Below are positions 1 through 19,311 of a stretch of DNA of 64,000 nucleotides, one piece after another. The position numbers and the translations under genes are program-made. The stretch's first letter is position 1. Each line of letters starts with the position of its first letter. The notes under the pieces were generated by a model. It had not been told where the DNA came from and searched no databases. It saw nothing but the letters and a program-made list of their open reading frames with translations. The stretch is from an uncultured Heliobacteriaceae bacterium (GTDB lineage: Bacteria; Acidobacteriota; Blastocatellia; RBC074): the NCBI GenBank assembly GCA_964563495.1, contig CAZLYK010000003.1, forward strand, positions 4,554 to 68,553, read 5' to 3'.

Positions 1-493
1 ACTTTTTGATCGGTATGGCACTTCGAACAGGTCTCGGCGATCTTGAATCGACTGACCATGGAGCGGGAATCATCCTTGCGGAAGATCTCGTGCGAGCCGT
101 GGCAATCCGCGCAGCCGGCCGCCTTGCCCTTGCTCGATTTGGCATGAATGCTCTCTTCGTGCTCTTTGGCTATGCCTTCGTGGCAACTCGCACACGAGCT
201 GACTTTCTGCGGCGCCGGCTCGTGCGGATACTCCTTGATGTCGGTGTGGCAACCCGTACAATCGAGCGCGCTGTGAACCGATTGGCCAAAGCCGGTCTCA
301 TCGACGTAGACGCTGACCTGCTTGCCATCGACCTCTTTGGTCAGATCCTGGTTGTTGTGGCAGGCCAGGCATTCGGCATTACCCATACCCTTTTTGGCGG
401 CGGCTTTCTGCGCTGTCGTCGAGCGACTCCCAATCGTCAAAATTCCGGCGAGCAAGAAGAGGCAGCAGATAATTCCCTTGGCAATTGTTTTCA
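1..493 (-). CDS. Multihaem cytochrome c, partial; the C-terminus lies beyond the window start
   Basis: Absent from the ORF track because no stop codon falls in the window. Minus-strand translation from the ATG at 491-493 gives [20 protein letters not shown] (signal peptide) followed by CLACH, CTGCH, CASCH, CADCH and CSKCH haem-binding motifs. Confidence 0.7.
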
Positions 494-530
494 TATAGTT
501 CGGGGGTGGGATGAGCGGATCAAAATATCA

Positions 531-628
531 AAATAGACAGGATGACAGCGGTTTTCACGTTTGTCTGACCGCGTCCTCGGGTCAGACAAACGTGAAAACC
601 GCTGTCATCCTGTCCAAATCCTGTCTAT
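531..628. repeat. Palindromic intergenic element E1 (TIR AATAGACAGGAT...ATCCTGTCTATT with a 34-bp perfect core hairpin at 536-612)
   Basis: Left TIR at 531-542, right TIR at 617-628. The perfect stem is gacagcggttttcacgtttgtctgacc / ggtcagacaaacgtgaaaaccgctgtc around a 9-nt loop. The element lies between two cytochrome genes. Confidence 0.8.
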
Positions 629-637
629 TCTGCCTAT

Positions 638-988
638 TTACTTCTTGGCCAACTCGCGGACATACCCGACGAGCTGTTTGCACTTGTCCGCGCCGAGGCT
701 CTTTTCATAGCCCGGCATTTTGCCTTTGCCCTTGGAGGTGACCTCGAGGAGCTTGGCGTCGGTCATTCCCTGAACCTCTTTCGAGCGCAGGTCTTTGAGG
801 TTCAGTTTGGTACCCATGGCAGTCTTGCCGCTGCCGTCTGTGCCATGGCAGCTGGCGCACTTCTGGTTATAAAGCGTCTTGGTCTCCTGGAACATCGGGC
901 CGGCCCCGAGCGAACTCGGTGACCAGGCCACCAAAACCAAGGCGACGGATGCAAAGAAAATAGCCAGTTTTCCAAATTTGGGGTTCAT
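638..988 (-). CDS. Monohaem class I cytochrome c (periplasmic)
   Basis: ORF 638..1057; the likely start is the internal MNPKFGKLAIFF signal peptide, preceded by AAAGGAG. It has a single CASCH motif and GKGKMPGY (Met sixth ligand). It is a paralog of the ORF at 7367..7795. Confidence 0.75.
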   Translation of the reverse strand: MNPKFGKLAIFFASVALVLVAWSPSSLGAGPMFQETKTLYNQKCASCHGTDGSGKTAMGTKLNLKDLRSKEVQGMTDAKLLEVTSKGKGKMPGYEKSLGADKCKQLVGYVRELAKK

Positions 989-1097
989 CGTAAACTCCTT
1001 TAAGTTTAGTGATAGGTTAAGGGGTAAAAACGAACACTTTGATGATCCAATTACCAAATTGGTTCGATTTGATCAAGAGATCACCACCAGTTACAAA

Positions 1098-2771
1098 TTA
1101 ATTCTCACCTTTCCCGATCAGGCGGCGAATCCGCGTGTAGAAGAGCGAGACGACCAGGGCCATCAATCCGAGAAATAGAAAGGCCGCGACGCGGTACTTG
1201 GGCGCCAGGCGCGCCAGATCGACCAGGAATAGATAGACGACAGTTACCAGCATCACCCCCATCGCCATGAAACGATACTTGATATTCTGGAGCAGGTAAC
1301 TGAAGCTAAAATACCCGATCGCGACCGCCGTCCACGAGAGCGTCACATACTGGCCCGGGACGATCTGATACAAGGCGTAGAGAATCATGGCAAAAGCGAT
1401 AAAAAGATAGACGTTACGGAGCGACTCTGTCCGAAGCGTAAGCCGCTCTTTTTGCCAGTTGATAATCCGGGCGCTGGCGTGCGCGACGATGACGAAGCTG
1501 AAATTGACCAGGTTCGAAGACGGAGCGGTCGTCAGGTAAGCGAGCAGGATCCCGATAAAGATCAATGAGTTGACGACGACCAGAAATCTGGACCTGAACC
1601 AGAGAGCCATCGAGACGACGAGCAGGCTTTGCAGCGAGAGCCACAAAAAAGAGGTTGGGATTGCCGCGTATCCGTAGATCGCGATGCTCAGCGCCATAAA
1701 TCCAAAACAGGCATATATTGCCGGCGCCAGTTGCCGGTGTGTCTTCAGCCACTGGATGATCGAGATCAAGAGAAACAGCCCGGCTACACCCAGGTAGACT
1801 GCCGCGTACCTCTCCGGAAAGTGAGTCATGACCGCCAGGAAGGCGAGCAGAGAAAAACCCAGGCAGTTGAGCAAAATCTCGGCAATCGAGATCGAGAGGG
1901 CGGTCTCGGAGTCTGCTTCCTTCCGCAGGAGCGCGGGAAGAGTAAAGATTGCCGCGTATAGAAATAAATAGCCCAGGTTGTATTGATGTTCGGTCACGCC
2001 GCGCAGGGTATGCCCGGCCAGGGGATTGTTGAGCAGCCAGAGCAAATGGGTGGAGTAGGCCAGAATAGTCGTCGCCATGAGCAGCCGCCACCAGCCATAA
2101 CGGATCTCCAGGAAGACTCCGAGGGCGCAAACCACCACCACCAGCGGCAAGCCGATGTGTGTTTTGTCGATCAGCAATGCCGAGACCAGCGCCGAGACGA
2201 TCGCCAGGGTCGCCAGCCCCTGGGATTGCCGCCTGAGCGCGAGATAAAGTTGAAGCCCGACAACTATCAGGAGCAGGGAAAAAGCCGGATAGAGATAACC
2301 GATCAACGGCTCGGCTGAAAAGAAGTGCAGCCGCATGGTCGTGTAAAAGAGCAGCAGCAGGCTGCTGTTGACCGTAATCCGGGACAGGTGCGGGGTGTCT
2401 TTGCTCCAGATCTGCGCAAGATAGGACAACCCGGCGGAAGCCGCGTAGCCCAGAATGCTGGCGAGGATCGGGTATCCGAGGCTGAAGGTATAGGTCACCA
2501 GAAAGACGATGCCGAGAAAGAAAATGATGCTCCCGACCCAGGCCAGGCCGAACTCGCCTATCTTCATCTCGACGGAGCCCTGCCCATACTCCGATGGTTT
2601 CGAAGCAGAGGCGGGCGCCTGTCCGGATGCCGGGCCTGCGAGCTGAGTGACCTCCCCGGCCGGCGCCAATCCAAGGTAGTTTTCGAGACTGGCGATTCGC
2701 ACTTCGAGATTGGTCAGAGCCTCGGATATTTTCGTTTCATCCAGCCCCTGCCGAATTTCCGGATGTGTCAT
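1098..2771 (-). CDS. Polytopic integral membrane protein, DUF2339-like (about 14 predicted TM helices), soluble N-terminal coiled-coil region
   Basis: 557 aa dominated by hydrophobic helices after an 80-aa polar N-terminus. It is embedded in the cytochrome operon. Function is unknown. Confidence 0.5.
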   Translation of the reverse strand: MTHPEIRQGLDETKISEALTNLEVRIASLENYLGLAPAGEVTQLAGPASGQAPASASKPSEYGQGSVEMKIGEFGLAWVGSIIFFLGIVFLVTYTFSLGYPILASILGYAASAGLSYLAQIWSKDTPHLSRITVNSSLLLLFYTTMRLHFFSAEPLIGYLYPAFSLLLIVVGLQLYLALRRQSQGLATLAIVSALVSALLIDKTHIGLPLVVVVCALGVFLEIRYGWWRLLMATTILAYSTHLLWLLNNPLAGHTLRGVTEHQYNLGYLFLYAAIFTLPALLRKEADSETALSISIAEILLNCLGFSLLAFLAVMTHFPERYAAVYLGVAGLFLLISIIQWLKTHRQLAPAIYACFGFMALSIAIYGYAAIPTSFLWLSLQSLLVVSMALWFRSRFLVVVNSLIFIGILLAYLTTAPSSNLVNFSFVIVAHASARIINWQKERLTLRTESLRNVYLFIAFAMILYALYQIVPGQYVTLSWTAVAIGYFSFSYLLQNIKYRFMAMGVMLVTVVYLFLVDLARLAPKYRVAAFLFLGLMALVVSLFYTRIRRLIGKGEN

Positions 2772-2815
2772 AACCTCACCTCAAGATATTGTTAATGACC
2801 AGAGCCAGCCTTCTG

Positions 2816-4123
2816 CTATGGCTTGCTTTCGATCTTCTTGATCTTGAGATAGACCAGGGCGGCGAGAAAGAGGATGAAGAAGAGCGAGACCGCCAGGCCC
2901 TTTCGCCTGAAGCCCAACTCTGAGAGGGCTCTCTCTCCGGCTTTCTGGCTCTTCCTGGCAATTTCAAGGCCGGGATTGATCACTTTTTCGACCTCGCCGA
3001 CGGAGAATGTATGAATCAGGACGCGCGCATTGGTCATGCTGTCTTTCGCTTCGCTCAATTCGAATTTGGGCCGGCTAACCTCCATTCCTGCCCGCTCAGC
3101 CCGGTTGATGATGGCCAGCGCATTCTGATTGGCCGCCAGCAATGCATCCATCATTCCACGCATTTTCTCCGCAACCTGATACCCGTTATCTCCCTGAGTG
3201 TGACAGCTGACGCAGGTCGATTTTTCTCCGACTCCGATCATGTCATCGTGCGGCGGCAGGATGTCGTGATTGTTATGGCACTGGATGCACTCGCCGATCT
3301 GCATCGCGTCGAAAGCGGCCTTGTGAGGGCTGGCCTGGAAGAGCGTCGATTGGCGAACGTGGCACTGTCCGCAGACATTTGCGATCGATGCGACGCCCGG
3401 CGGCGTTGCTCCGTGGTTGCCGTGGCAATCGTTGCAGGTCGGCGCCGAAGTATCCTGACGATCATAGAGGGCTTTGGCGTGGACGCTCCGTTTGTACTTC
3501 TCGTACTGATCGGTAGGGATCTTGTAGCTCTTCATGTAGTCGGCGTTGGCGTGGCATTTGGAGCAGGTTTCGGCGACGTTCATCGAAAAAACGGCCGCCT
3601 GCGGATCGTTGATCGCCCGGACGCCGTGGCTGCCGTGGCAGCTGACGCAGGTGGCGACTTTTTGATCACCGCCTTTAAGCAGCTTGCCGTGCACGCTCGT
3701 GAAATACTCGCGTTCCTGATCGACGCGCAAAGCCGGGTTGAACTGCTTGATGAAGTCGGCGTTGCTGTGGCACTTACCACAGAACCCCGGCACATTTGCC
3801 GGCTTCGGTTTGGCGATGAAGCCTTTACGCGGGTCCATGGCCCGGGTCGGGTCATCCTGTGAAGCATCACCGCCATGGCAATTCGCGCAGGAGAGGCCGC
3901 GGGACTTGTGTATGTCGCCCTTCATTAATAGTTGCACCGGCTCACCGATCGGCCCTTCGATCTGTGAATGGCATTCGATGCAGGAGTCCTTCTTCTGCGC
4001 CGGCGCCAGGCCGAAGAGAAGTATCAAGAGCATCGCCGCGCAAAGCGACTTTCTCAATCCATGTCCGAGCCTTGGTGAGCGGGTGTCTAGCTTAATCTCT
4101 CGATCAATCTCATGCAGATCCAT
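2816..4123 (-). CDS. Nonahaem cytochrome c with a C-terminal transmembrane anchor
   Basis: Nine CxxCH motifs (CIECH, CANCH, CGKCH, CVSCH, CSKCH, CNDCH, CGQCH, CIQCH, CVSCH). A hydrophobic stretch [17 protein letters not shown] lies near the C-terminus. Confidence 0.8.
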
Positions 4124-4137
4124 ATTCCCAGCCTCCC

Positions 4138-5235
4138 CTAGTCAAGATAGCCATAGACGGTCATGGCTACGATAAACAGGACAACCACCAACCCGATAGC
4201 GGTGAAGATCGAGCTTCTTTTGCCTGGTCGCGTTGGTTTGTCTAAAAAGGGAACGAGGAGCCAGAACAGCCCGCCCAGCGCGAATGCCATGATGCCGATC
4301 ACCTCGCCATCGAAGATCAGGATTTTCGCCGGGATCAGTTTGAGCGTCTGGAACATGAAGAGGAAATACCATTCGGGTCTGATGCCTGCCGGAGCGGACG
4401 CGAACGGGTCGGCTTTTTCGCCCAGTTCCCAGGGGAAGATCGCCGCCAGAGCGGCCAGCACGCCGATTGCCAGGATCCAGCCGATCAGGTCGCGGAGGAT
4501 GAAATTGGGAAAGAACTTCATGGTTTTGAGATTCTTTCCCTCAAGGCTCGGCGGCACGCTCATGCCCTGTTTTTGGACGAGCAGCAGGTGGAGGACCAGG
4601 AGGGCGGTCGTGGCGGCCGGAAGGACCGCGACATGGAAGCCGTAGAACCGCGTCAGCGTCGCGCCGGTTACATCTTCGCCGCCGCGGAGGAACCGCAGCA
4701 TGAACTTACCAATGACCGGCACGACGCCGGCGATATCAGTTCCGACTTTGGTCGCGAAGAACGCCAGTTTATTCCACGGGAGCAGATACCCGCTGAATCC
4801 GAAACCCAGCGCGATAAACAGAAGCAGGACTCCGCTGACCCAGGTGAGCTCGCGCGGGGCGCGGTAAGCCTTGAGGAAATAGACGCTGAACATGTGGATG
4901 AAGAGCGTCGCGATCATCAGGTTGGCCGACCAGCTGTGAATCGATCGGATCAACCACCCGAACTGCACCTCGGTCATGATGAACTGGACGCTTTCGAAGG
5001 CGTTTTCGGCGCTCGGCCGGTAATAGAGCAGCAGCAGTATGCCGGTGACTACCTGGACGACGAAGAGGAAGAGCGTCATCCCGCCGAAGTAATACCAGAT
5101 CTCGTGGCGGTGGATCGGGACCTCTTTCTTACGCGCAAACTCCGCTAACGCTTCAATCCCCAACCGCTCGTCCAGCCAGTCTCTGAATGCCGCGGCTCTT
5201 GGGGCTGTTTTGGTCAGCCGTGGATTCATAGTCAC
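4138..5235 (-). CDS. Cytochrome b of a Rieske/cytochrome b (bc-type) complex
   Basis: Paired-His helices ([21 protein letters not shown] and [23 protein letters not shown]) typical of the cytochrome b/b6 N-terminal domain plus a subunit-IV-like C-terminal part. It is directly downstream of a Rieske gene. Confidence 0.85.
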
Positions 5236-5673
5236 CTATCCTTTCGAGACGATGATTTCGTCGCCGCGGGTGTTGACCACGTATTCTTCAAGTGGGCGGG
5301 GCGGCGGGCCGCCGACATTCTGGCCGTTCAGGTTGTAGCGCCCGTTGTGGCAGGCGCACCAGATCCCTTTCATCTCAGGCTGATACTGCACAATGCAATC
5401 CAGATGGGTGCAGGTCGCGGAGAAGGCTTTCAGTTCTCCCGCCGGCGTGCGGATCAACAGACCGGGTTTGTTGCCGAATTTGAAGATCTTCCCGGAGTTC
5501 GCCGCCAGTTCGTTGACTTTCCCGGCGACGACGGAATTCTGAGTCGCTTCGGTCACTTCCGGCGGGGTGATAAATTTGAAGATCGGGTAGAAAATGGCTA
5601 CCAGCGTAGCTCCCGCACTCGTTCCCAGCAGGTAGTTGAGGAAACTACGCCGGCGGTTCACCTCTCGATCCAT
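5236..5673 (-). CDS. Rieske [2Fe-2S] iron-sulfur protein
   Basis: CTHLDC and CACHNGRY boxes. A Tat-like [12 protein letters not shown]-terminus. The start is chosen at MDREV, 7 nt after AGGAGG. The gene abuts cytochrome b. Confidence 0.85.
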
Positions 5674-5705
5674 AAGCATCCTCCTTTTCGTGCAGGTCCT
5701 GGGGG

Positions 5706-7241
5706 TTACGGATTGCTCCCCCCTCCAGAATGGCAATCTATGCACTTGACCCCGCTGAAATCGCCCAGGTCAACCGGGTGCTTGAACGGTTTTCCCTGAA
5801 CCGGCATGACCGGCGCCCCGCCCTCTATCTGGTCAAGCACCGTGTGGCAGATGTTGCAATCGTTTCTCACTACTTTGCCTTCCCGGCTCATATGCTGCCC
5901 GTCGTGGCAGCGGAAGCAACCGGTGAAGTAGTAGTGGCTCAGGTTATCCGGGTGGGTTCGCCAATCGACCTTCATTTCCGGAAAGATGGTGTTGGTAAAG
6001 ATGCGCTGGACTTCCGAGATCGCCCCTTTGACGGACCCCTCGATTTTGGCGTACCGGTCTGAGTAATTGCTCCGATAATAATTTTCCAGGTCGGTCGCGA
6101 TCGTCCTCGTCGCCTCATTGGTAGTGGCATATGACTTGGTCAGCGTCTGGATCGCCTGCTGTTTGATGTACGGCAGCGTACGATCGAGCCTTCCGGCGAG
6201 AAGCGACTCGTCTACCGACCGATCCGGCGGAACATAGATGTGAGAGGGGCGGTTGTGGCAATCCACGCAATCCATCCGCCGCTTGGATGCCTTGGCGATC
6301 TCTTCCGGCGTGAGCGTCGAATCCTTGGCCACGTACTCGGTGATCTGGCCCTGCCTGTCTTTCATCTGTACCCAGGGGATGACCTGTCGCTGTTCATCGG
6401 TCGAGATGTAAGTAATCTCATTGGCGATGTTCATATGCCAGTGAATCCCGGTGACAAAGCCGGACTTGGCGCTGCCCCCACCGGTATTGATCAACATCCT
6501 GATCTGAGTCGGCGTATTGTTCTCGTCGGATGCAAAATGACTGAAGACCTTCATCTGAGCGCCAAAGAACTTCTCCGGCCAATGGCATTGCTCGCAGGTC
6601 TCCTGAGCGGGCCGCAGACTCTTGACCGGGGTGTGGATCGGCGTCGGGTATTTCTTGAAGAGAACGGCGTAGACCTGATATGCGCCGGAGAGCTTCGAGC
6701 GGACATACCACGTGGCGCCCGGGCCGACGTGACAATCGACGCATCCGACCCGTGCGTGAGGCGAGTTCTGATAGGCAATGAACTCCGGGTGCATGACCGA
6801 GTGGCAGGTCTGCCCGCAGAACATAACCGAATCGGTGAACTCATACGCCTGGTAACTTCCAAACGTGCTCAGGAAGAGAAAGATGAAGGACGAAACGACA
6901 AAGATAAAGACCCCGCGGCGTTGTCGCGGGTTGTTCAAATCGATCCTCGGATAGAACGGCATCCCGGCAACGGCGCCCTTATGCCGCCGCCTTCGTTCGA
7001 GGATCATTCCGAGCAGAACCAGCAGCAGGCCAACGATCATGATCGCGGGGAAGACAATGTAAGCGAAGATCCCGATATAAGGATGCTCGCGCTTCCCCAG
7101 CATGTCGACGAGGAAAAGAAAAATGATGCAGATCAGACTGGTCGTGGCAATGACCAACCCCGCCAAACTTATGAAATTGCGCGTCAGCCCGGGTACGTGT
7201 GGATTTTTCGCTTCTTTATCGAGAGGGTTCGGCGAGCTCAT
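5706..7241 (-). CDS. Membrane-anchored heptahaem cytochrome c (N-terminal TM helices)
   Basis: Two to three N-terminal hydrophobic helices followed by CGQTCH, CVDCH, CEQCH, CVDCH, CFRCH, CNICH and CIDCH. Confidence 0.8.
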
Positions 7242-7264
7242 CTTGGGGTATCCTTTCTCACTTT

Positions 7265-7349
7265 AATAGACAGGATGAACAGGATTTTTTCAGGATCGAC
7301 AAGCTGGAGTCCGATCATTCCTGAGAAATTCTGGTTGACCCTGTCTATT
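7265..7349. repeat. Palindromic intergenic element E2
   Basis: The element begins with AATAGACAGGATGAACAGGATTTTTTCAGGAT and ends with a CTGTCTATT terminus. It lies between the heptahaem cytochrome gene and the monohaem cytochrome c paralog. Confidence 0.75.
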
Positions 7350-7366
7350 TCCTTATCCCGGTGCGT

Positions 7367-7723
7367 TCACTTCTTTTTGGCTAATTCCCGCACGTGGGCG
7401 ACCAACTGCTTGACTTGATCCGCCCCCAGGCTCTTTTCGAAGCCGGGCATTTTGCCCTTGCCCTTGCTGATGATTGTCTGCAGTTGAGCATCGGTCTGTT
7501 TCTGTACCTCTGCCGAACGCAGGTCGCGAACCTGCATCTTCTTCCCCATGGGCGTGCCTCCGCTGCCGTCGACGCTATGGCAGGTTGCGCACTTGGTTTT
7601 GAAGGTGAGGTCGATTCCCTGCGGCATGGCGCCGGTGACAGCCGATGAGGATAAGACCGCCAGCGCCACCATTGGAAGCGCGAGTAAGGAGATCACCCAT
7701 TTGATTTTGAAGGATGAGATCAT
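7367..7723 (-). CDS. Monohaem class I cytochrome c (paralog of 638..988)
   Basis: The likely start is MISSFKIKW. It has a CATCH motif and GKGKMPGF, and ends ELAKKK like its paralog. Confidence 0.75.
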   Translation of the reverse strand: MISSFKIKWVISLLALPMVALAVLSSSAVTGAMPQGIDLTFKTKCATCHSVDGSGGTPMGKKMQVRDLRSAEVQKQTDAQLQTIISKGKGKMPGFEKSLGADQVKQLVAHVRELAKKK

Positions 7724-7837
7724 CTTACCATCTCCTTTCAAGAGAGGTTTCAAAGGTGTTGATTGATACGTAAGACCTGCGCTCCCAAAGCTCATGACAA
7801 GCTTTGGGAGCGCAGGTCGCGACGGATTGGAGACAAG

Positions 7838-9988
7838 TTAGAAAGTAAACCGCAAGCTGGTCGTCAAAATATTGGCGCGATAGTTCTGGAATGAGTTGAG
7901 AGAGATCGCCTCACTCTCGTTATAGCTGTAATGGCGATAGCTCAAATTCCCAGTCACGTTATTGCTGAACCGATACGCCAACCGAACTTCCGGGTTATGG
8001 CGACGCAGCGGGTACGAATTGACCTGATCGTTTGCCCCGAGCGTGACTGACGGGTTTCCTCGATCCATGATGTAGTAATAAGCCATCAACAGATCGAGTC
8101 GATTGGTCAGCCCGAATCGGGTATTGGCAAAGACCGAGTTGATCCGCGAATAGTAGAGCGACCTTCCGCTGATGCGCTGGGTGCCCAGGGTGTAATTGAT
8201 CAGCGCCTCGGCATAGAGATCGTGATAGTCATACCCGAGGTCGATCATGGCCCGCTGATTGGGTTCCCAGCTGACGGCTCCGGTATAGCTTCTCATATCC
8301 GACTCGTTTTTAACCAGAGGCGTTGGATTGCTTCGGTCGAGGGAAGTGAAAGTCCCGTTGAATCCGAGCTTTTCGGTCGCCTGGATTTGTGCGCGGATAC
8401 GGAACCTGGTGTAATCGAGCGGGGCAATCCGGATAAAAGCATTGTTGTTCTGCCCGTGCTCGACGTCGAACATGAAGCTCGACCGGCCGCCCGGGCGAAT
8501 CCTCACTCCACCGATGAAGGCGTGGGTGTCGATGGACTCCTCTTCATCTTTGATCACCGGATTGGTTGAGGTGGCGTTCCAGATACCCGCCAGTGCGACG
8601 TCCCGCTTCATCGCACGCCACCCTAGATTGGCGGAGAACTTCCTTCCGTAACTGATGTTGGCCTCGAGCGTGTTGCGGTATGAGGATAGATCGGTCAGAT
8701 AGCCGGAGGCGACGGTTCTCGAAAATGTATTGAGAATCGGGCCGGTCCCGGCTTGTTGAACCGAGGTGTTGGTGTAGTCCATGTCTCCCTGGATACGGAA
8801 GGCAGTGTAGTTGAAGGTATCGCTGATCGTCAGGTGTTTATTGATGTCGAGGCTGACGCCGGCGTCAATGATATTCCCGGGTCTTTCGGCGATGCCGCTG
8901 TCATTGGCGAGGCTGAGAGTGCGGGAGATGATGGTCTGCCCATTGTTGGCGCGACCGGTATCTCTTTCCCAGTAACCCGCCCTGATCCGCTCATCGTCGT
9001 GCAGGGCCCGGAAGACTAGATGCAGGCGATCGGCGATCGATCCCCGGATCCCCGCTCGGGTGACCAGAGAACGCGAACGGAACGGAGTATCACGAAAGAG
9101 CGTCGTGATCCGGCCGTTGTCCGTGGTGACATATCCGAGGTCTCCGCCGGCTCTGGAGGTGATGGTCGGATCGTTGCTGAAATTACGGTAAAGCTGCTCG
9201 GCGTTGAAATCCCATTTCCGGTAAGTCGCGTCGATGCCGACACGATAATCATTGGCATCCCAACGAGTATTACCGAAGAGTTGGAAGATGTCGCGTTCGA
9301 AGCTATAAGTGGGTGTGTAGCGCCCCTTGGCCATGCTCCGGCTGTAACCGGCGTTGAACCTGACCGCACGCTGCGGGAAGAGCTTGAGGTTGAAGTCCGA
9401 GATCTGCTGCCGCAGATCGTGATCGCGCCAGGTGACGCCGGGGATCGGCGCGGCATAAGTCCCGACCGAACGGTAGTAATTGAAACGCCGGATATTGGCG
9501 TCAAGGAGATAGAACCGGGTCTTTTCGGCGCGCATGTTAAAGTTCTGCGCCACGTCGCCGCCGGCGTTGTTGACGCTCACCTTCATGAAATCGAAGAGCA
9601 CGCCGGTGCCGGGGCGAGCGCGCATATCGAGCGAATAATCGAGGACCCGGAATCCGTCACGGACGTTGACGTCTGAGAGATAGCGCCCCTCACTCCCGCC
9701 GGTCTCGACGAAGCGATAGCCGAGCTCGATCGAGGTCGTCGTCGAATAGATGCCCCACATCCGTCCGGTTTCGGGCGCCGCCGGCTTCGGATCACTCGGT
9801 TTAGCCGAAGCGACTTTAGCCCGTTCGTACTGAACCTCCAGTTCCTTGGCCTGCTGTGTCGTCTCAGCCTTCTCGACACTGCTCTGCGCCATGACGATCA
9901 CGCCGCACAGCAGAACCAGTGTACAGATCGCTGCCCCCGTCAAAGTTCGGGAGAGCCAGAGAGAGATAGATTGCATCCTGGGTTTCAT
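7838..9988 (-). CDS. Large outer-membrane beta-barrel protein, MtrB/PioB/MtoB-like porin of a porin-cytochrome conduit
   Basis: 716 aa after the start at MKPRMQSISLWLS (signal peptide; AAGGAGG RBS). It has a C-terminal ...SLRFTF with terminal Phe and alternating hydrophobic residues typical of OM barrels. It lies immediately downstream of a periplasmic decahaem cytochrome. Confidence 0.6.
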   Translation of the reverse strand: MKPRMQSISLWLSRTLTGAAICTLVLLCGVIVMAQSSVEKAETTQQAKELEVQYERAKVASAKPSDPKPAAPETGRMWGIYSTTTSIELGYRFVETGGSEGRYLSDVNVRDGFRVLDYSLDMRARPGTGVLFDFMKVSVNNAGGDVAQNFNMRAEKTRFYLLDANIRRFNYYRSVGTYAAPIPGVTWRDHDLRQQISDFNLKLFPQRAVRFNAGYSRSMAKGRYTPTYSFERDIFQLFGNTRWDANDYRVGIDATYRKWDFNAEQLYRNFSNDPTITSRAGGDLGYVTTDNGRITTLFRDTPFRSRSLVTRAGIRGSIADRLHLVFRALHDDERIRAGYWERDTGRANNGQTIISRTLSLANDSGIAERPGNIIDAGVSLDINKHLTISDTFNYTAFRIQGDMDYTNTSVQQAGTGPILNTFSRTVASGYLTDLSSYRNTLEANISYGRKFSANLGWRAMKRDVALAGIWNATSTNPVIKDEEESIDTHAFIGGVRIRPGGRSSFMFDVEHGQNNNAFIRIAPLDYTRFRIRAQIQATEKLGFNGTFTSLDRSNPTPLVKNESDMRSYTGAVSWEPNQRAMIDLGYDYHDLYAEALINYTLGTQRISGRSLYYSRINSVFANTRFGLTNRLDLLMAYYYIMDRGNPSVTLGANDQVNSYPLRRHNPEVRLAYRFSNNVTGNLSYRHYSYNESEAISLNSFQNYRANILTTSLRFTF

Positions 9989-10005
9989 CTTAAGCCTCCT
10001 TTCCT

Positions 10006-11043
10006 TTAGCGGAAGAATCGATCTTTGTTGGACCCGTGAATTTCGAGATGGCAAAGCGTGCAATTCCCATATCGCGGACTGTTGATGTCGTGGCTGGTCG
10101 GGCTTGGCACCCCGATGCCGCCGCCGTCACCGGGTATTCCCGGCGTATTCGAATGGCATTCGATGCAGAGGAACCTGACCAGGTTCCGCGTCAGCAGTTT
10201 CGGGTTGGTCGAGCCGTGTGGCGTATGGCAGGCCTGGCACCCTTCGGCCTTGATCGGAGCGTGTTCAAACACGAACGGCCCCTGCTTGTCGGCGTGACAT
10301 TTGAGACAGGCCAGGTCGCCGTTGACCGAATTGCGCATCGATTTGAGCATAAAACCGCCGTGCTGATTGTGGCAATCGGAGCACTTCATGCCGCCTTCCG
10401 GAACTTTGTGGTGGAAGGGTTTGGCAAAGGTGGACTTTTGCTCGGCGTGGCACTGATAACACATATTCGGCTCGGTGTCCTTGAGCAGGAACTCCGTCCG
10501 CTTCGGGGAATGCGACGAATGGCAGTCCAGGCACGATACGCCGTGACGGGCGTGCTCGCTCCGTCGATAGTTGAAGCGCTCGTCATTCCGGCCCTGCGAG
10601 CCTTCGTGACATTTCAGGCAGATCGCCGTAGTTTCACTCGACGAAAGATCCTTGATATCGCGCATCTTCGCGGCCTCGACTCTGGCCGCGTCGTTCATCA
10701 AGGCGGTGGCTTCGGCGTCTTTACCGTCCTTGAACAGTTGTGCGATGGTCTTCTGGAATTCGGCGTGAGTCCTGGCGCCGCCGTGACACGCCTCGCACCC
10801 GCGCTGATCAACCGGGAACTTGTCGCCCAGTTTGGCGTGCGCCGTTAACGAGAAGAAGGCGTGCTGGCCCGTGTGGCACTCGGCGCAGGTATCGCTGCCG
10901 ATGTATTGGTTCGGGTCGTTGCTGACCGGCTTGCTCTGACCAGGTTTTGGCCTGACCGAAGCCAATGTCGTTCTTAAATTCAAGAACGTTGCGGCTGCAC
11001 CGATCAGGAACAACATTACGACGATCAGCTTGATGTGTCGCAT
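10006..11043 (-). CDS. Periplasmic decahaem cytochrome c, MtrA/PioA/MtoA-like
   Basis: 345 aa with a signal peptide and exactly 10 CxxCH motifs. The size and haem count match MtrA-family partners of MtrB-like porins. Confidence 0.8.
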
Positions 11044-11174
11044 AAGGTTCTCCTTTTAGATTCTCTCTATCCGACGATTTTCTGCGGCTGTTTTGGTCTG
11101 GCCGGACAGAACAGCTTGTTAAAAACAGTAAAAAAACCGGATGGCCTTTTGGGGGTCATCCAGGCAGCCGCAAT

Positions 11175-11987
11175 TTATTGATTGGGATAAAGTTTCTTTC
11201 TCAGCGAATCTTTCAGTTTGGTCCCCTGCTCGAAAGCCGCGTCTGCCTTGGCCCGGACAACCTCCAGATTGAAGGCGTGGAACCCGGCTTTTGACTCGAT
11301 CAGCATGGCGTGGACGACTTTCATCTCTTTCTGATCGTCGGCCACATCCATCTTGCGTTTCTCGGCCTCTTCGAGCAGGCGATCAGCCCAGGCGACGACC
11401 ATATTGGCTCGTCGAATCGCGGTCATAGCTTCAGCCGCCTTTTCCGGAATCTCTGGGCGCTTCGGCATCATGGCGTTGGTTGAATTGTGGCAGCTGGCGC
11501 ACAGCTCAGAGGTCTGCTCCGGTGTGTACATCACCTCGGAGGCCATATGAGCGTGACAGGTGCTGCAGCTCGGCCCGATCCCGACAGTCTTCAAATTCTG
11601 ATAATGCTTGCTCTCGATAAAGTTGCTGACAAAGGGCTGGTGACAGGCGTTGCATGTATCGGGCACATTCTTGGGAAAGACCCTGCTGTTGGCGTCCGCG
11701 GGAGGCAGAACGCCATCGTGGGCCTTCTTCTGATCTTCTGCGCCGGGGTTGCCGCCGTGACATTTTTCGCAGCCCACACCCTTTATCTTATGCACCGACA
11801 TATGCCATTCCGCGTACTTGCCGCTCATCTTGATCGGGGAGGTCAGCCTCGAATGGCAGTTGACGCATTCATTGTTTTTGAATACGGCCATTTCGTCCTG
11901 GCCGATCACGGGTCTTTTCGCTTCACTGGTGGGCGCCGTGACCCAAAACAAAAAGAAGAACGCCACTACAAAAATTTTCTTTAGCAT
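11175..11987 (-). CDS. Pentahaem cytochrome c with signal peptide
   Basis: The internal start MLKKIFVVAFFFLF is used. Motifs are CVNCH, CEKCH, CNACH, CSTCH and CASCH. Confidence 0.75.
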   Translation of the reverse strand: MLKKIFVVAFFFLFWVTAPTSEAKRPVIGQDEMAVFKNNECVNCHSRLTSPIKMSGKYAEWHMSVHKIKGVGCEKCHGGNPGAEDQKKAHDGVLPPADANSRVFPKNVPDTCNACHQPFVSNFIESKHYQNLKTVGIGPSCSTCHAHMASEVMYTPEQTSELCASCHNSTNAMMPKRPEIPEKAAEAMTAIRRANMVVAWADRLLEEAEKRKMDVADDQKEMKVVHAMLIESKAGFHAFNLEVVRAKADAAFEQGTKLKDSLRKKLYPNQ

Positions 11988-12392
11988 GGTCCTTTTCCTT
12001 TTCTTCCCGGTTCTTCTATTGGAGCGATGAATCCGCCGCCGTCCTTCCCACCTATCTAATGATTGAGACAATCATTTCACCAAGTTAGAGTCACTGCTCT
12101 TGCAAGTGACGATCCAAAACCGGCCCCCGCTGTTTTTTTTTATCTTGATCTGACCAAGGCAAAGCGCTCACACCGCACGAGCGTGATATTTGCGGACTTA
12201 ACGGCTGAATTTTATGTCTGTTGACCCGAATTAGTCTGTGATCCACGGCACACCTAACTGTGACGTAGCGCACAACTGCGGAAAATTATCTACCTTCCGC
12301 CACTCGACGCTGCGTAAATTTCCCCTAATGATTACGGGTTGTCAAGATTATCCTGACCGGGTCTCCGATGCCGGGGAATAAAAGAGGATAAC

Positions 12393-12461
12393 CGCCAGGA
12401 AGCCAGGCGGGCCAAGCGGCAATAAATCTCTCTTCGTCTTGGCCCGCCTGGCTTCCTGGCG
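12393..12461. promoter_or_regulatory. 24-bp perfect inverted repeat with a 21-nt loop in a 510-bp divergent intergenic region
   Basis: The arms are cgccaggaagccaggcgggccaag ... cttggcccgcctggcttcctggcg. Confidence 0.5.
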
Positions 12462-12509
12462 ATTATTCTTGTTGTTGAATGGTATCATGCGGAATATTTT
12501 GTAAATTCA

Positions 12510-12567
12510 GTTTTCTGATAGGGATGTAGCGCGGGTAAAAAAACCCGCGCTACATCCCTATCAGAAA
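12510..12567. promoter_or_regulatory. 26-bp perfect palindrome immediately upstream of the ATP-grasp gene start (operator or attenuator hairpin)
   Basis: The arms are ttttctgatagggatgtagcgcgggt ... cccgcgctacatccctatcagaaaa around an AAAAAAA loop. The palindrome ends 15 nt before the ATG at 12583. Confidence 0.5.
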
Positions 12568-12582
12568 ACTGAGAGAGCGAAT

Positions 12583-13917
12583 ATGAGAGAGAATGCGATT
12601 AGTGAATATCATACAAACCTGGCCACTGACGAAGGTCTGACGCCGGAACTTTTTACTCGGTTGAAAGGCTGGATGAGCGCGGCGCGGATGTTGTACGGCA
12701 AGCGCGAGCTGGGGATATCGCTTCGCCCGCATTTTTTGACCCGGGGTCAGTACGATTTACTGGTGGACAGGTCGCAGGTATTGGTGAGGGCCTTTGACAA
12801 AGTCGCCCTGGCCATGCTGGAAGCTCCGGTTTTGATGGACCGGGTGGGTTTGCGGGAGCGTGAGCGCCGGTTGGCGCTGGTCAACCCGGGGTATCCATTA
12901 CCGGCGATCAACACGCGGCTTGATGCATTTATCAGGGGCGATCAAATCAAGTTCGTCGAATTCAACGCAGAGAACCCATCGAGTCTCATGGATCAGGCCG
13001 GGTTGAATCAGATTCTCTTTGAGATTCGCGCTCTACAGATTCTGGCTGAGCGCTATCGCATGCGGCAGTTCACGCCGGTGGCGAGCCTGGTCAGCTCTCT
13101 GCTCAACACCTTCCACGAATGGGGAGGGGTCGGCGCACCGAATGTCGCGATTCTCGATTGGGCCGATCTGCCGACGCTGCACGAATTCGTCCTGCTCCGT
13201 AATTACTTCGTCGGCTGTGGAATACCGACGATTATCTGCACTCCGGATGAGCTGGAATACGGCCATGGACGCCTGCGACGCGGCGATTTCCGCATCGACC
13301 TGGTCTATAAGCGGATCATCATCCACGAATTTCTGGACCGTTATCAAGATGATCATCCGCTGATTCGGGCCTATACGCACGGCTCGGTCTGTCTGATTAA
13401 TCCCTTTCGCTGCAAGATGCTCCACAAGAAAGCCGGCTTTGAGATGCTGACCGACGATGCTCATGATCGATGGTTCACCGCCGAGGAGCTCGGAGTTATC
13501 CACCAATGTGTGCCGTGGACCCGTCGCCTGTTCGAACGCAAGACCATTTACCGAGGGCTGGAGATCGACCTGATCGAATACATCAGGAAAAATCGCGCCG
13601 ATTTCATCCTCAAGCCGAACGACGATTATGGAGGGCACGGCATCTACTTCGGCAATCTCGCCGGCGTCTCTGAATGGGATTCATATCTGGACGACGCTTT
13701 GACCGGCGATTACGTGGTTCAGGAAAGGATCGACCTGCAGACCGAAGACTTTCCCATATTTAATGAGCGGGAGTGGAGCTTGCAGCCGATGTATGTCGAT
13801 ACGAACCCATTCATTTTTCGCGGCAAAGTCGATGGCGCCATGGTTCGGTTGTCCGATTCTCCGATCGTCAACGTCACTTCGGGCGGGGGCGAAACGGGCT
13901 TTTTTGTTCTGGAATAG
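12583..13917 (+). CDS. Circularly permuted ATP-grasp superfamily protein (glutathionylspermidine-synthase-like fold)
   Basis: 444 aa carrying [16 protein letters not shown] and VVQERIDL motifs characteristic of this family. Substrate is unknown. Confidence 0.55.
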
Positions 13918-14128
13918 ATATTTTTGACTGTGCATAAATCCCCAGATCTTGTGAGTAATAATGCGCACGAAGTGAATTTTTACGTCCCGCCTTTGATATC
14001 CCAGCCTGAAGAAGATCCGGAACGGGTGTTGCATGGGCTAATTGAGCAGTTCCGTGCAATGCTTTAAATAAGTGGCAGATCCTTATTGCCGATTTTTTTT
14101 CAATCCCAGATTCAGAAAAGGGGGGCCC

Positions 14129-15249
14129 ATGGCTGGTTCGACATCCACCATTTGGCAGTCCATGCAATCGAAGGGATATTCCCGCCGCGACTTTATCCAT
14201 TTCTGCACGGTAGCGGCAACGGTTGCTGGCATCGAAGCAACGGCCCTGAACACGGTTGTCCAGGCATTTGAAAATAAACCCCGCCCACCTGTAGTCTGGC
14301 TGCATTTTCAGGAATGCACCTGCTGCAGTGAGTCATTTATCCGCTCATCGCATCCGATCGTCGCCGACATCCTGCTCGATTATCTATCGCTCGATTATAC
14401 CGAAACATTGCAGGCCGCCGCGGGTCATCAGGCCGAAAAGTGTTATCAGGACACGATCAAGAAGTACCCGGGCCAGTATATTCTGGTGGTCGAGGGTTCG
14501 GTTCCGATGAAAGACGACGGTATCTACTGCATGATCGCCGGCCGGTCGGCGGAAGAGATCCTCAAGGAAGCGGCGAAAGACGCCGCGGTAGTGATTGCGT
14601 GGGGCAGTTGCGCCTCAAACGGATGCATCCAGAGCGCGAAACCGAATCCGACCAACGCGACTCCGATTCACAAGATTATCAACAAGCCGGTCATCAATGT
14701 TCCCGGCTGTCCCCCGATTGCCGACGTCATGACGGGCGTGGTCACGCACCTGCTGGTCTTTGGCCGCCCGCCCTCACTCGACAACCAGGGTCGTCCGAAA
14801 GAGTTTTACGGTCGTCGAGTTCACGACACGTGTTACCGGCGGCCTTATTACGACGCCGGCCTGTTCGTCGAATCGTGGGACGATGAGGCCGCGCGCAAGG
14901 GTTATTGCCTCTACAAGATGGGCTGCCGCGGCCCCGTTACCTACAACGCCTGTTCGGTCACCAAATGGAACGGAGGCGTCAGTTATCCGATTCAATCAGG
15001 TCACGGTTGCATCGGTTGCAGCGAGAACGGGTTCTGGGATAACGGCCCGTTCTACCAGCATCTGGCTTCGTTCCCGGGCTTTGGGATAGAGAGCACGGCC
15101 GATACGATCGGGACTGTTGCCGGTGTCGTGACGCTTGCGGGAGTGACACTTCACGCAATCACCACGAACATCCGGAAGCACAAGTTGATCAAAGAAGAGG
15201 TTGTCGATTCGATCGAAACCGAAAAAGAAGTGGAAGGAGGTGATCAGCA

Positions 15250-15253
<4 letters not shown>
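14129..15253 (+). CDS. hyaA: [NiFe]-hydrogenase small subunit, membrane-bound group 1, with O2-tolerant-type cysteine pattern
   Basis: The start at MAGSTSTIW follows AAAAGGGGGG. It has a Tat motif SRRDFIHF, the ECTCCSESFIRS and WGSCASNGC motifs (both supernumerary Cys of a [4Fe-3S] proximal cluster), and a C-terminal TM anchor. Confidence 0.9.
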
Positions 15254-16965
<1,712 letters not shown>

Positions 16966-16976
16966 GGAGGCGCACC

Positions 16977-18162: not shown

Positions 18163-18169
18163 TAGAAGA

Positions 18170-18511: not shown

Positions 18512-18525
18512 ATTGAGGTGATTGG

Positions 18526-19263: not shown

Positions 19264-19311
19264 TTGATGATGAACACGAGTCCTCGATTACAACCCGGTG
19301 AGCGGTTGCGA

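Follow-up and report, generated by a model that had tools for sequence, protein, structure and literature searches.

How might a soil bacterium connect its quinone pool to the outside of the cell, and does a block of cytochrome genes from an uncultured soil acidobacterium (class Blastocatellia), known from a MAG, encode such a connection? The whole stretch of DNA analysed here (64,000 nucleotides; hereafter the window) carries on its minus strand, at 1-11987, a block of 11 co-directional genes with 38 haem c motifs (37 CXXCH and one CX3CH); the remaining 52 kb contains a single haem c motif. This enrichment is far beyond chance, because the cluster's complete ORFs contain 32 CXXCH motifs in 3,878 aa compared with 1 in 15,350 aa in ORFs elsewhere in the window. 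A sequence-only reading had proposed a gene order running from a pentahaem cytochrome to a multihaem cytochrome that continues off the window, and all eleven genes were found in that order. The identical gene string is carried by an independent assembly (L001). Judged from the coordinates, neighbouring genes are 0-44 bp apart within modules and 109-143 bp apart where modules meet. Upstream of the cluster, a 595-bp divergent intergenic region (11988..12582), the presumed promoter region, extends from the pentahaem start to a divergent ATP-grasp-like gene and contains one weak FNR-like half-palindrome (12475-12488). The block is a real and probably functional supercluster for extracellular electron transfer (EET), and we put the probability that it encodes a modular EET pathway at about 0.6.

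The candidate outer-membrane conduit consists of a decahaem cytochrome and a beta-barrel. The decahaem protein (10006..11043, minus strand, 345 aa, 10 CXXCH) had been described as MtrA-like, and we could confirm this: it exceeds the cutoff of the DmsE/MtrA family (NCBIfam TIGR03508, 233.7 bits versus 192.2) and, in a phmmer search of PDB sequences, matches MtrA (6r2q_A) with an E-value of 8.7e-32. Its gene lies 17 bp upstream of that for a 716-aa outer-membrane protein (7838..9988, minus strand) ending in SLRFTF. Decahaem and barrel form an obligate gene pair, with the decahaem gene adjoining an intact barrel gene in 40 of 40 informative loci. The 716-aa protein had been taken for an MtrB-like barrel, and its predicted fold agrees with this. 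Modelled with AF2 at moderate confidence (pLDDT 76, pTM 0.63), it forms a large beta-barrel, and MtrB is by far its best structural match, with 561 residues aligning in Foldseek at a TM of 0.61-0.67. The C-terminal Phe is likewise present, and is invariant. The likeness does not, however, extend to sequence. Searches of Pfam, NCBIfam and profiles returned no MtrB or PioB match, and identity to Shewanella MtrB is 13-14%, in structural alignment only. In contrast to MtrB, the mature protein lacks a CXXC; the sequence has just two Cys, at 22 and 28, both within the signal peptide. The barrel belongs to a large family which has no Pfam or NCBIfam model and is labelled "hypothetical" in every record. 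In one relative (P0453), a monohaem cytochrome c is fused to the barrel C-terminus.

The first gene of the block encodes a pentahaem c-type cytochrome (11175..11987, minus strand, 5 CXXCH; Pfam Cytochrome_C7, NapC/NirT and Paired_CXXCH matches). It had previously been read as a 298-aa ORF from a TTG at 12071; we shortened it to 270 aa from an ATG, and the gene is likewise 270 aa in the annotation of the independent assembly. The protein, which has a Sec-type signal peptide and a helical domain at its C-terminus but no lipobox, is a probable periplasmic carrier. In a subset of relatives its gene precedes that of the decahaem or belongs to another operon, of 5-haem, monohaem and CymA-like genes, 4-6 kb away. 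Two class I monohaem cytochromes c accompany it. One (7367..7723, minus strand, 118 aa, one CXXCH; Pfam Cytochrome_CBB3, 43.9 bits), which we infer to be a periplasmic shuttle, is predicted from its sequence to have His/Met ligation, and a monohaem gene directly follows the barrel gene in 52 of 61 loci. The ligand check drew on a set of 48 unique homologues; the KGKGKM(P/E) Met was found in 40 of 40 aligned sequences listed and in 10 of 10 regex-flagged tails listed, and on these alignments it appears conserved. The other (638..988, minus strand, 116 aa; Pfam Cytochrome_CBB3, 45.7 bits) is more closely related than the first to the monohaem found after the barrel in most relatives. His/Met ligation does not fix the potential of a monohaem, because PmcA is a His/Met cytochrome and yet sits at -143 mV (PMC13390432).

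Three inner-membrane modules follow. The protein previously called a membrane-anchored heptahaem cytochrome (5706..7241, minus strand, 511 aa; Pfam NapC/NirT, 45.4 bits) indeed has seven haem motifs and a membrane anchor, but its identity had been missed: it is an ImcH-type multihaem quinol/quinone oxidoreductase, with three N-terminal hydrophobic helices followed by a CX3CH (CGQTCH at 142) and six CXXCH. The published features of the ImcH family include three TM, CX3CH, six CXXCH and a length of 495-519 aa (PMC6295460), and all the defining ones are present, as in Geobacter ImcH. The family is very widespread, with at least 8,000 matches. At the window edge, the multihaem gene which runs off the sequence (1..494, minus strand, 5 CXXCH in a scan of 161 aa from bases 3-485) is the 5' part of a CbcL/MtoC/MtrH-like gene, a relationship the earlier reading had not noticed. 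Its homologues are 54-60% identical across the N-terminal portion contained in the window and measure 707 aa (L002), 706 aa (L041) and 684 aa (L095). Those of L002 and L041 have 11 CXXCH, compared with 9 haem motifs in Geobacter CbcL, and 5-6 TM; like CbcL, the homologues join an N-terminal multihaem part to a C-terminal HydC/FdnI-like membrane domain, for which the L041 protein scores 29.4 bits with Pfam Ni_hydr_CYTB, below the cutoff of 30.1. By likeness to these full-length proteins, the truncated gene would encode a multihaem cytochrome c fused to a b-type membrane domain.

The third module is a Rieske/cytochrome b unit, and the earlier identification of a bc-type complex held up, with cofactor and Qo-site motifs intact. 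The Rieske [2Fe-2S] subunit (5236..5673, minus strand, 145 aa; Pfam Rieske, 44.8 bits, and TM_PetC) has CTHLDC...CACH boxes and a Tat signal/anchor with a twin-arginine RRSFL. Cytochrome b (4138..5235, minus strand, 365 aa; Pfam Cytochrome_B, 190.7 bits, and Cytochrom_B_C) is of the fused b6 plus subunit IV type and contains HX13H, HX14H and PEWY; its sequence has no Cys for haem ci. Its NCBIfam scores, 258 bits for cytochrome b6 and 225.7 bits for ExtP, are both below the cutoffs (290 for the ExtP equivalog). The next gene encodes a nonahaem c-type cytochrome (2816..4123, minus strand, 435 aa, 9 CXXCH) with a C-terminal membrane anchor, seen as one hydrophobic helix by direct reading and as two hydrophobic segments in a crude hydropathy count. 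In relatives this gene always follows Rieske and cytochrome b, including in stand-alone copies, and its family, with at least 6,797 homologues, is mainly acidobacterial. The nonahaem protein replaces cytochrome c1 in a complete Rieske/cytochrome b6-type complex. Anammox bacteria and the Cbc-type complexes of Geobacter similarly combine Rieske and a b6-type cytochrome b with multihaem c subunits that stand in for cytochrome c1 or f; in contrast to these, the complex in the window is physically linked to an outer-membrane conduit and its nonahaem family is mainly from acidobacteria. Downstream, in a position conserved in relatives and kept in L089 and L095, is a gene for a DUF2339 polytopic membrane protein (1098..2771, minus strand, 557 aa, ~12 TM; Pfam DUF2339, 46.2 bits versus a cutoff of 33.6). 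Since ImcH-type, bc and CbcL-like modules are all present, three quinone-pool modules stand behind one conduit.

Among the closest published systems is mtoA-mtoB-mtoD-imoA (cymA; CymA-ES1) of Sideroxydans lithotrophicus ES-1, where monohaem cytochromes are modelled as feeding an oxidase, bc1 or a NapC/NirT protein (PMC4412085, PMC13390432). Its order is the majority arrangement among relatives of our locus (decahaem, barrel, monohaem c, small NapC/NirT), whereas in the window the fourth position is taken by the ImcH-type protein. Both systems lack an MtrC-type surface cytochrome and have two monohaems (MtoD and PmcA in Sideroxydans). The window differs in its acidobacterial host, its barrel without an MtrB/PioB sequence match, its His/Met rather than bis-His monohaem, the ImcH-type and CbcL-type modules in the cluster, and the inclusion of a Rieske/cytochrome b complex, the bc1 genes of Sideroxydans being elsewhere. 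Shewanella MtrCAB-CymA (PDB 6r2q) shares a decahaem of the same family and an inner-membrane quinone-pool cytochrome; it differs in having the MtrC/OmcA decahaem lipoprotein that the window cluster lacks, and in using STC/FccA as periplasmic carriers instead of monohaem class I cytochromes. The linkage of an MtrAB-like pair to a bc complex had been called uncommon, which is fair, but there is a precedent: extHIJKLMNOPQS of Geobacter sulfurreducens is a porin-cytochrome cluster with Rieske and cytochrome b genes (PMC5877670). The likeness is seen in the ExtP score given above, although this falls short of the equivalog cutoff. ExtI is a 45-kDa Pcc-type porin, whereas the window barrel is of MtrB size; ExtP is a short, b6-only protein (23 kDa), whereas our cytochrome b is fused to subunit IV; and the window cluster has no rhodanese or selenoprotein. 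Geobacter encodes ImcH and CbcL outside its ext cluster, and the window has both types within one. A 2018 survey found no mtrAB or mtoAB beside imcH (PMC6295460), in contrast to the window, where only a monohaem gene separates the barrel gene from the imcH-type gene ~600 bp downstream.

Is the bc complex then wired to the conduit, as the earlier reading held? Across 97 related loci, decahaem, barrel and His/Met monohaem c make up the invariant core, and the inner-membrane partner varies. The gene after the monohaem encodes a CymA-like NapC/NirT protein in 23 of 45 loci, a CbcL-like protein in 3, and a non-orthologous Rieske with a cytochrome b-c fusion in 6, all of one clade; in 1 it is a nonahaem gene that belongs to a convergent bc module. 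Proximity to a bc module does recur in divergent relatives, but the module is outside the conserved core, and most relatives have CymA-like NapC/NirT there. Conduit and bc module are thus in part independent, since the latter is also convergent in two relatives and stand-alone elsewhere. The Rieske/cytochrome b/nonahaem unit, perhaps with DUF2339, may be a nearby housekeeping complex III of the ordinary aerobic kind, because it is widespread, stands alone in L089 and L091, and is absent within 10 kb in most barrel lineages recovered via the barrel itself, an unbiased sample. The conduit would then use ImcH, CbcL or a CymA-like protein alone, and the genes would be close because cytochrome-rich respiratory operons cluster and share regulators. 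The bc module runs convergently to the conduit in L011 and L094 and is therefore a separate transcription unit there (it is co-directional in L093); in the window, internal promoters could lie in the gaps of 114 and 125 bp flanking the first monohaem gene and in the 109-bp gap that follows DUF2339. However, an orthologous bc module lies near the conduit in at least five barrel lineages, a non-orthologous one in one clade, and Rieske/cytochrome b within 5 kb in two distant family members; for a ~3-kb locus in a several-Mb genome, this recurrence is far above random placement. In addition, L095, with a barrel of only 45% identity, retains all eleven genes in another order, and in loci of the L012 type Rieske starts ~15 bp past the ~360-bp post-barrel monohaem gene with no other quinone module. 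We therefore consider a bc complex with no part in the conduit rather unlikely. Far less probable still is a reading of the barrel as a large porin of the ordinary kind or a TonB-dependent-type transporter, with an unrelated periplasmic decahaem beside it. Such an identity would fit the lack of an MtrB/PioB HMM match, but receptors align over only ~400 residues (TM ~0.4), markedly worse than MtrB; no plug-domain or TonB-receptor Pfam match was found; and the constant pairing with a decahaem gene and the barrel-cytochrome fusion both argue against it.

A stronger competitor, though less likely than not, concerns direction. In uptake of the Mto/Pio type, decahaem and barrel would oxidise an extracellular donor (Fe(II), Mn(II), reduced humics or a mineral), and electrons would pass through the monohaems downhill to a terminal oxidase, and also uphill to quinones via NapC/NirT or a reversed Rieske/cytochrome b complex. 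The Sideroxydans-like order of most relatives favours this, as does the missing MtrC-type cytochrome, a feature of MtoAB and PioAB. For Acidithiobacillus, uphill transfer through a reversed bc complex is accepted, and the same has been proposed for MtoD (PMC4412085). An uptake [NiFe] hydrogenase adjoins the cluster in the window, which fits an energy supplement from inorganic donors; but it is not kept beside the cluster in relatives, no autotrophy genes were seen within the 64-kb window, and the cluster monohaem is His/Met whereas MtoD is bis-His. A heterotroph needs no reverse electron flow, yet a quinone-pool module stands beside the conduit in nearly every lineage. To date, moreover, ImcH homologues are known from Fe(III) reducers alone, and they are viewed as quinol oxidases; in Geobacter, both ImcH and CbcL have been linked to outward EET, as proposed quinol oxidases still to be characterised (PMC6295460). 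By analogy with these families, implicated or proposed as inner-membrane EET components, the ImcH-type and CbcL-like genes may offer a simpler wiring of the conduit than the bc complex. We lean towards outward flow because of this Geobacter role, because relatives have Crp/FNR-family regulators on the flanks of the cluster, and because cultured members of the host's lineage are heterotrophs; these use menaquinone. With the odds about even, quinol would be oxidised and extracellular Fe(III), Mn(IV) or humics reduced when O2 is scarce. The cluster encodes no MtrC/OmcA-type surface cytochrome, which leaves contact with solid minerals unexplained.

In the modular EET pathway that we favour, the decahaem cytochrome would sit inside the barrel and take electrons through the outer membrane, in the manner of MtrAB, MtoAB and PioAB. 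Shuttling through the periplasm would fall to the monohaem cytochromes and perhaps to the pentahaem, and the inner-membrane modules would trade these electrons with the (mena)quinone pool, each probably in its own redox window. The bc-type complex would be an optional plug-in, adding Q-cycle energy conservation or reverse electron flow, and not an obligatory partner. The conduit is built around a pore family that is named in no database, and, with the periplasmic cytochromes and quinone modules, it looks like a complete wire from the respiratory chain to the cell exterior.

Positions 1-11987 of the window are occupied by eleven minus-strand genes in tandem. In the direction of transcription they encode a pentahaem cytochrome c (11175-11987), a decahaem cytochrome c (10006-11043; 345 aa), a 716-aa barrel protein (7838-9988), a first monohaem cytochrome c (7367-7723), a 511-aa membrane cytochrome of ImcH type (5706-7241), a Rieske protein (5236-5673), a cytochrome b (4138-5235), a nonahaem cytochrome c with a C-terminal anchor (2816-4123), a DUF2339 membrane protein (1098-2771), a second monohaem cytochrome c (638-988), and a further multihaem cytochrome c (1-494) that runs off the window after its first ~164 codons. 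The complete ORFs of the block contain 32 CXXCH motifs in 3,878 aa, compared with one in 15,350 aa of ORFs from the other 52 kb; thus, the cytochrome block is real and far beyond chance. The sequence-only reading had described a co-directional block of eleven cytochrome-related genes, and all of them were found in the order it gave, with the motif density as confirmation. It had also named the pentahaem gene correctly but overestimated its product at 298 aa by starting from an upstream TTG; the ATG gives 270 aa, and an independent assembly calls the same start.

G+C content is uniform over the block region and therefore gives no sign of a recently acquired island. Gaps within modules measure 0-44 bp (decahaem/barrel, 17; ImcH/Rieske, 32; Rieske/cytochrome b, 0-6; cytochrome b/nonahaem, 14; nonahaem/DUF2339, 44), and those at module borders measure 109-143 bp (131, 114, 125, 109 and 143). 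This pattern fits a supercluster built from three or four units, possibly with internal promoters. A promoter and terminator consensus scan of 1-12700 returned counts equal to those in shuffled sequence and is therefore uninformative on operon structure. When we searched for FNR/CRP palindromes, the upstream intergenic region of the cluster held one weak site only (12475-12488). Over the whole window, TTGATN4ATCAA with at most two mismatches occurred at 53 sites versus 27.7 ± 4.9 in shuffles, none of which reached 53; most of these FNR-like sites are intragenic.

The decahaem protein carries 10 CXXCH motifs in its 345 aa, behind an N-terminal hydrophobic signal read from the sequence. It scored 233.7 bits against TIGR03508, the NCBIfam model for the DmsE/MtrA/MtoA family (cutoff 192.2), over model positions 1-257 of 258, and its residues 132-340 matched MtrA of the solved Mtr complex (6r2q_A) with an E-value of 8.7e-32. 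These matches assign it to the DmsE/MtrA/MtoA family and bear out its earlier description as MtrA-like.

For the barrel protein, sequence and predicted fold gave different answers. Neither Pfam nor NCBIfam yielded a match at E≤0.01, the MtrB/PioB models (PF11854/TIGR03509) included; a profile of 42 barrel homologues run against PDB sequences did not find MtrB at E≤10, and PF11854 gave a sub-threshold match (15 bits, cutoff 23) in one distant relative only. In an AlphaFold2 model built with the 42-homologue alignment (pLDDT 76), an all-beta barrel begins near residue 76 and runs as far as the C-terminal Phe, which is invariant in the homologues. In Foldseek, MtrB was the top match to the model (E 1e-15, TM 0.61/0.67), with the next matches at TM ~0.4, and the predicted model agrees with a large beta-barrel fold like that of MtrB (26 strands). 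The mature protein is free of Cys. An N-terminal CXXC motif is typical of metal-reducing gammaproteobacterial MtrB; it is absent from the barrel, whose sole Cys residues (22 and 28) belong to the signal peptide. Fold comparison is the sole link to MtrB, a sequence-level link to MtrB/PioB having been rejected after negative results with Pfam, NCBIfam and the 42-sequence profile. We also rejected a TonB-dependent receptor, for which aligned length and TM-score were much lower; the barrel has no plug domain and is always paired with a decahaem gene. Of the earlier MtrB-like assignment, the predicted barrel fold and the MtrB match stand, and membership by MtrB/PioB HMM does not. The protein is MtrB-like in modelled fold and in genomic partnership, and by sequence criterion it falls outside the MtrB/PioB family.

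A search of 1.84 billion representatives with the barrel profile retrieved 1,278 family members, counted as cluster representatives, 174 of them at E≤1e-30. The family is without a Pfam or NCBIfam model, and every record naming a member calls it 'hypothetical'. Ten distant members were compared with Pfam, and none had an above-threshold match to a barrel family; one of the ten, a fusion protein, had cytochrome c domains in its C-terminal part. Judged at the sequence level, the barrel is a new family. Where the barrel's homologues carry a label, it is that of Blastocatellia or Acidobacteria/Acidobacteriota MAGs; others have none, and many of the contigs bear JGI or ENA metagenome identifiers. 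The records of four homologous loci (L004, L006, L007 and L008) are titled 'uncultured Heliomicrobium sp.'; Heliomicrobium is a genus of Bacillota, bacteria that lack an outer membrane, so the name is probably either a placeholder or wrong.

All cluster proteins were mapped onto 97 loci from other assemblies and metagenomes, numbered L001 to L097; a single-protein scan of genome contigs provided 8 loci, an alignment-based metagenome scan 76 more, and others were added. Of the 46 loci with enough upstream sequence, 40 have the decahaem gene immediately before the barrel gene, and the six exceptions are 5'-truncated barrel remnants. These remnants (L043, L044, L059, L066, L067 and L077) start at query residues 121-127 or 395, lack an upstream decahaem gene, have unrelated neighbours, and are apparently decayed or rearranged. 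Directly downstream of the barrel, a class I monohaem cytochrome c is found in 52/61 loci. A distal Met in the motif KGKGKM(P/E) was present in all monohaem homologue sequences inspected (48 unique sequences collected), which predicts His/Met ligation for the first monohaem cytochrome. In addition, the 894-aa distant barrel-family member P0453 (L096 2096-4780, GCA_016853205.1) ends in a fused class I monohaem cytochrome c domain, and a decahaem-like gene lies immediately upstream of it; the existence of such a fusion argues independently for a joint function of these proteins. These data show that the decahaem/barrel/monohaem core is obligate.

Several other genes accompany the core in individual relatives. 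In L097 (3761-6723), the decahaem-barrel pair is immediately preceded, on the same strand, by genes for System II cytochrome c maturation (ResB, CcsA). One Blastocatellia genome (L002 5450-6580; L003 1402-2532) has, upstream of the cluster and divergent from it, a gene for a 376-aa protein with a photosynthetic-reaction-centre cytochrome c domain (PF02276). In five relatives, the cytochrome cluster has a gene for a Crp/FNR-family regulator (cNMP_binding + HTH_Crp_2) at its flank (L002 16723-17454; L089 3954-4667; L093 2940-3659; L094 15637-16353; L095 13097-13738); the window shows none, its corresponding end being cut off.

On the other side of the block, an ATP-grasp-like gene (12583-13917, plus strand) is divergent from the pentahaem gene, as it also is in L010 (16741-18081), L053 and L060. 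In relatives with this neighbour, the pentahaem gene heads a separate pentahaem/monohaem/CymA-like operon, and the L010 copy of the ATP-grasp-like gene has weak GSP_synth and CP_ATPgrasp matches. Beyond it, a membrane-bound [NiFe] uptake hydrogenase region occupies 14072-28165 on the plus strand, with genes for the small subunit (14072-15253), the large subunit (15250-16965) and a b-type cytochrome (16896-17711), followed by hypF (19237-21579) and hypD (25926-27029). Cysteine-synthase-like, AstE/aspartoacylase-like and formate-THF ligase genes sit inside the hyp cluster (21637-25643), and the latter two are repeated neighbours as well. We considered the hydrogenase as a part of the extracellular electron transfer (EET) system and rejected this, since it is not conserved beside the cluster in relatives. 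Elsewhere in the window, two adjacent minus-strand ORFs of 351 and 159 aa (47325-48865) were read by eye, from N-terminal sequence only, as TatC-like and TatA/B-like; if this reading is correct, the pair would bear on how the Rieske protein and the hydrogenase are exported, though it is probably housekeeping.

Two further EET quinone modules, one ImcH-type and one CbcL-like, had been overlooked in the earlier reading of the block. The 511-aa cytochrome has about three N-terminal hydrophobic helices, an adjacent CX3CH (CGQTCH at 142) and six CXXCH motifs, and its NapC/NirT Pfam match covers residues 107-201. It fits the published description of the ImcH family, which comprises proteins of 495-519 aa with three N-terminal TM helices, a CX3CH by the TM domain and then six CX2CH (PMC6295460); the assignment is by features, a dedicated HMM being absent from Pfam and NCBIfam. 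At the ImcH loci described in that work, mtrAB or mtoAB was never found beside imcH (PMC6295460), whereas in the window only the monohaem gene parts the imcH-type gene from the barrel gene. The last gene of the block is cut after 161 aa, and the motif scan of this part (bases 3-485) found five CXXCH. We read its architecture from full-length homologues in L002 and L041, which are 54-60% identical over the visible N-terminal part and have 11 CXXCH and 5-6 TM helices; Ni_hydr_CYTB scored 29.4 bits in L041 (cutoff 30.1) and had no match in L002. Members of the CbcL/MtoC/MtrH family join an N-terminal multihaem c domain to a C-terminal b-type domain of six TM helices that resembles HydC/FdnI. By the architecture of these homologues, a multihaem cytochrome c with a b-type membrane domain, the truncated gene appears CbcL/MtoC/MtrH-like.

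The gene that follows the monohaem gene was counted in the 45 loci with at least 1.5 kb of downstream sequence. By Pfam, it encodes a 209-aa NapC/NirT (CymA-like) protein in 23 of them; in three it is a CbcL-like protein of roughly 706 aa with 11 haem motifs and 5-6 TM helices. In six loci of the clade nearest to the window (barrels 74-77% identical), the monohaem gene is followed by genes for a Rieske protein and for a cytochrome b with a fused class I cytochrome c. This L012 clade carries a different, non-orthologous complex, because its Rieske protein and cytochrome b are only 26% and 39% identical to those of the window. At one locus (L011) this position is taken by the nonahaem gene of a bc module in convergent orientation, and the remaining 12 have nothing recognisable. 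These counts show that the quinone-pool partner of the conduit is variable.

The cofactor motifs are intact throughout the modules of the cluster. The Rieske protein (Pfam Rieske, 44.8 bits) has CTHLDC and CACH boxes and a twin-arginine RRSFL, and its box II, CACHNGRY, has Gly where high-potential Rieske proteins carry Ser, which would fit a menaquinol-type complex; Acidobacteria use menaquinone. Cytochrome b (Pfam Cytochrome_B, 190.7 bits) has the four haem-ligating His residues of helices B and D (HX13H at 100, HX14H at 201) and the Qo-site motif PEWY at 287, and has no Cys for haem ci; on these grounds it is a fusion of b6 and subunit IV. No cytochrome c1 or f homologue was found in the module, and the C-terminally anchored nonahaem cytochrome stands at that gene position.

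The conduit had been proposed to be joined to this bc-type complex in a single system, and the relatives bear this out in part. The nonahaem subunit has 6,797 homologues, and the Rieske/cytochrome b/nonahaem unit is found widely, in some cases with DUF2339 and in others without it. Among loci retrieved through the barrel, and so unbiased as to bc, a bc complex is nearby only in L011 and in the L012 clade. In L095 (barrel 45% identical), genes for the pentahaem, decahaem, barrel, two monohaem, CbcL-like, ImcH-like, Rieske, cytochrome b, nonahaem and DUF2339 proteins follow one another on one strand, which is the gene set of the window in a different order. L093 (barrel 51%) has monohaem, decahaem, barrel, monohaem, Rieske, cytochrome b, nonahaem and CymA-like genes on one strand, and in L094 (barrel 53%) a monohaem, ImcH-like, Rieske, cytochrome b and nonahaem series is convergent with decahaem, barrel and monohaem genes. 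Having been ascertained through a bc subunit, these three loci give no measure of frequency. Two distant family members were picked regardless of the bc module: on the contig of P0368 a bc module is nearby and co-directional, with an ImcH-like gene, and in L097 it lies 5 kb upstream on the opposite strand. Such proximity cannot be random, because it recurs, for one locus of roughly 3 kb per genome of several Mb; one recurrence involves the non-orthologous bc complex. Synteny was divided, conduit and bc module being co-directional in L093 and L095 but convergent in L011 and L094, with the bc module standing alone in L089 and L091. Thus, proximity recurs across lineages, but the linkage falls short of a conserved operon, and the bc module is a recurrent, optional addition to the conduit rather than the partner that defines it.

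Among known systems, the closest in gene order is MtoAB-MtoD-ImoA and the closest in structure is MtrAB. MtoD, a monohaem cytochrome of Sideroxydans, has bis-His ligation (PMC4412085), in contrast to the His/Met ligation predicted here. The closest precedent for a conduit with Rieske and cytochrome b is Geobacter extHIJKLMNOPQS, which encodes a porin (ExtI), multihaem cytochromes, a Rieske protein (ExtO) and a cytochrome b (ExtP) (PMC5877670); the window's cytochrome b scored 225.7 bits against the ExtP equivalog NF040969, below its cutoff of 290. MtrCAB has been reported in Acidobacteriia (Bryobacterales and unclassified members), with MtrC present, a tetrahaem cytochrome downstream and no quinone oxidoreductase nearby (PMC8805035), and PioA/MtoA homologues have been noted in Acidobacteria (PMC10654088). 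In the literature on Blastocatellia and Acidobacteriota, we found no description of the barrel family or of the cluster in Blastocatellia.

Taken together, the block is a real and probably functional EET gene supercluster. By analogy with the Mtr structure and with the Mto and Pio literature, the barrel would hold the decahaem protein across the outer membrane, the periplasmic step would fall to the monohaem cytochromes, perhaps with the pentahaem protein, and the ImcH-like, CbcL-like and bc modules would each connect to the quinone pool. Electrons may flow outward, from quinol oxidation to the outside: Fe(III) reducers are the only organisms with known ImcH homologues, which are treated as quinol oxidases (PMC6295460), Crp/FNR-type regulators flank the cluster in relatives, and the conduit has a quinone module beside it in nearly all lineages, something that a heterotroph requires only to oxidise quinol. 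Alternatively, electrons may be taken up from an outside donor, since the commonest gene order in relatives is exactly that of the Sideroxydans mto cluster, the cluster has no MtrC-type surface cytochrome, and a reverse-running bc complex is established in acidophilic iron oxidisers. We rejected monohaem His/Met ligation as a sign of high potential or of direction; it cannot decide between the two because PmcA, a Sideroxydans monohaem cytochrome with His/Met ligation, sits at -143 mV.

We speculate, with a probability of roughly 0.3, that Blastocatellia may run a Q-cycle-coupled form of EET, in which electrons would pass from Rieske/cytochrome b to the nonahaem cytochrome, then through monohaem shuttles and the MtrB-like conduit, so far unrecognised, to acceptors of high potential outside the cell such as Mn(IV)/Fe(III) oxides and humics. 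Run backwards, this wire would draw electrons from Fe(II) or Mn(II). The combination of one outer-membrane core with CymA-like, ImcH, CbcL or two unrelated bc-type modules is a natural experiment, which shows that inner-membrane partners of EET conduits are interchangeable, and the cluster offers a concrete system for testing whether a Rieske/cytochrome b complex couples to EET. Porin-cytochrome conduits are the known electron route across Gram-negative outer membranes, and they are recognised in genomes mainly via MtrB/PioB, Cyc2 or Geobacter-type models. HMM screens for iron genes that depend on models of this kind would thus be expected to report a lone 'MtoA/DmsE' match, or nothing, in these soil bacteria. 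Abundant soil Blastocatellia are regarded as strictly aerobic oligotrophic heterotrophs. If the Q-cycle-coupled pathway is real, it would represent a kind of energy-conserving EET that is not known in Shewanella or Geobacter, and a dominant soil clade would be a hidden player in metal redox cycling. If the EET pathway of the cluster is active, expectations of how a numerically important soil lineage lives under fluctuating oxygen would change.
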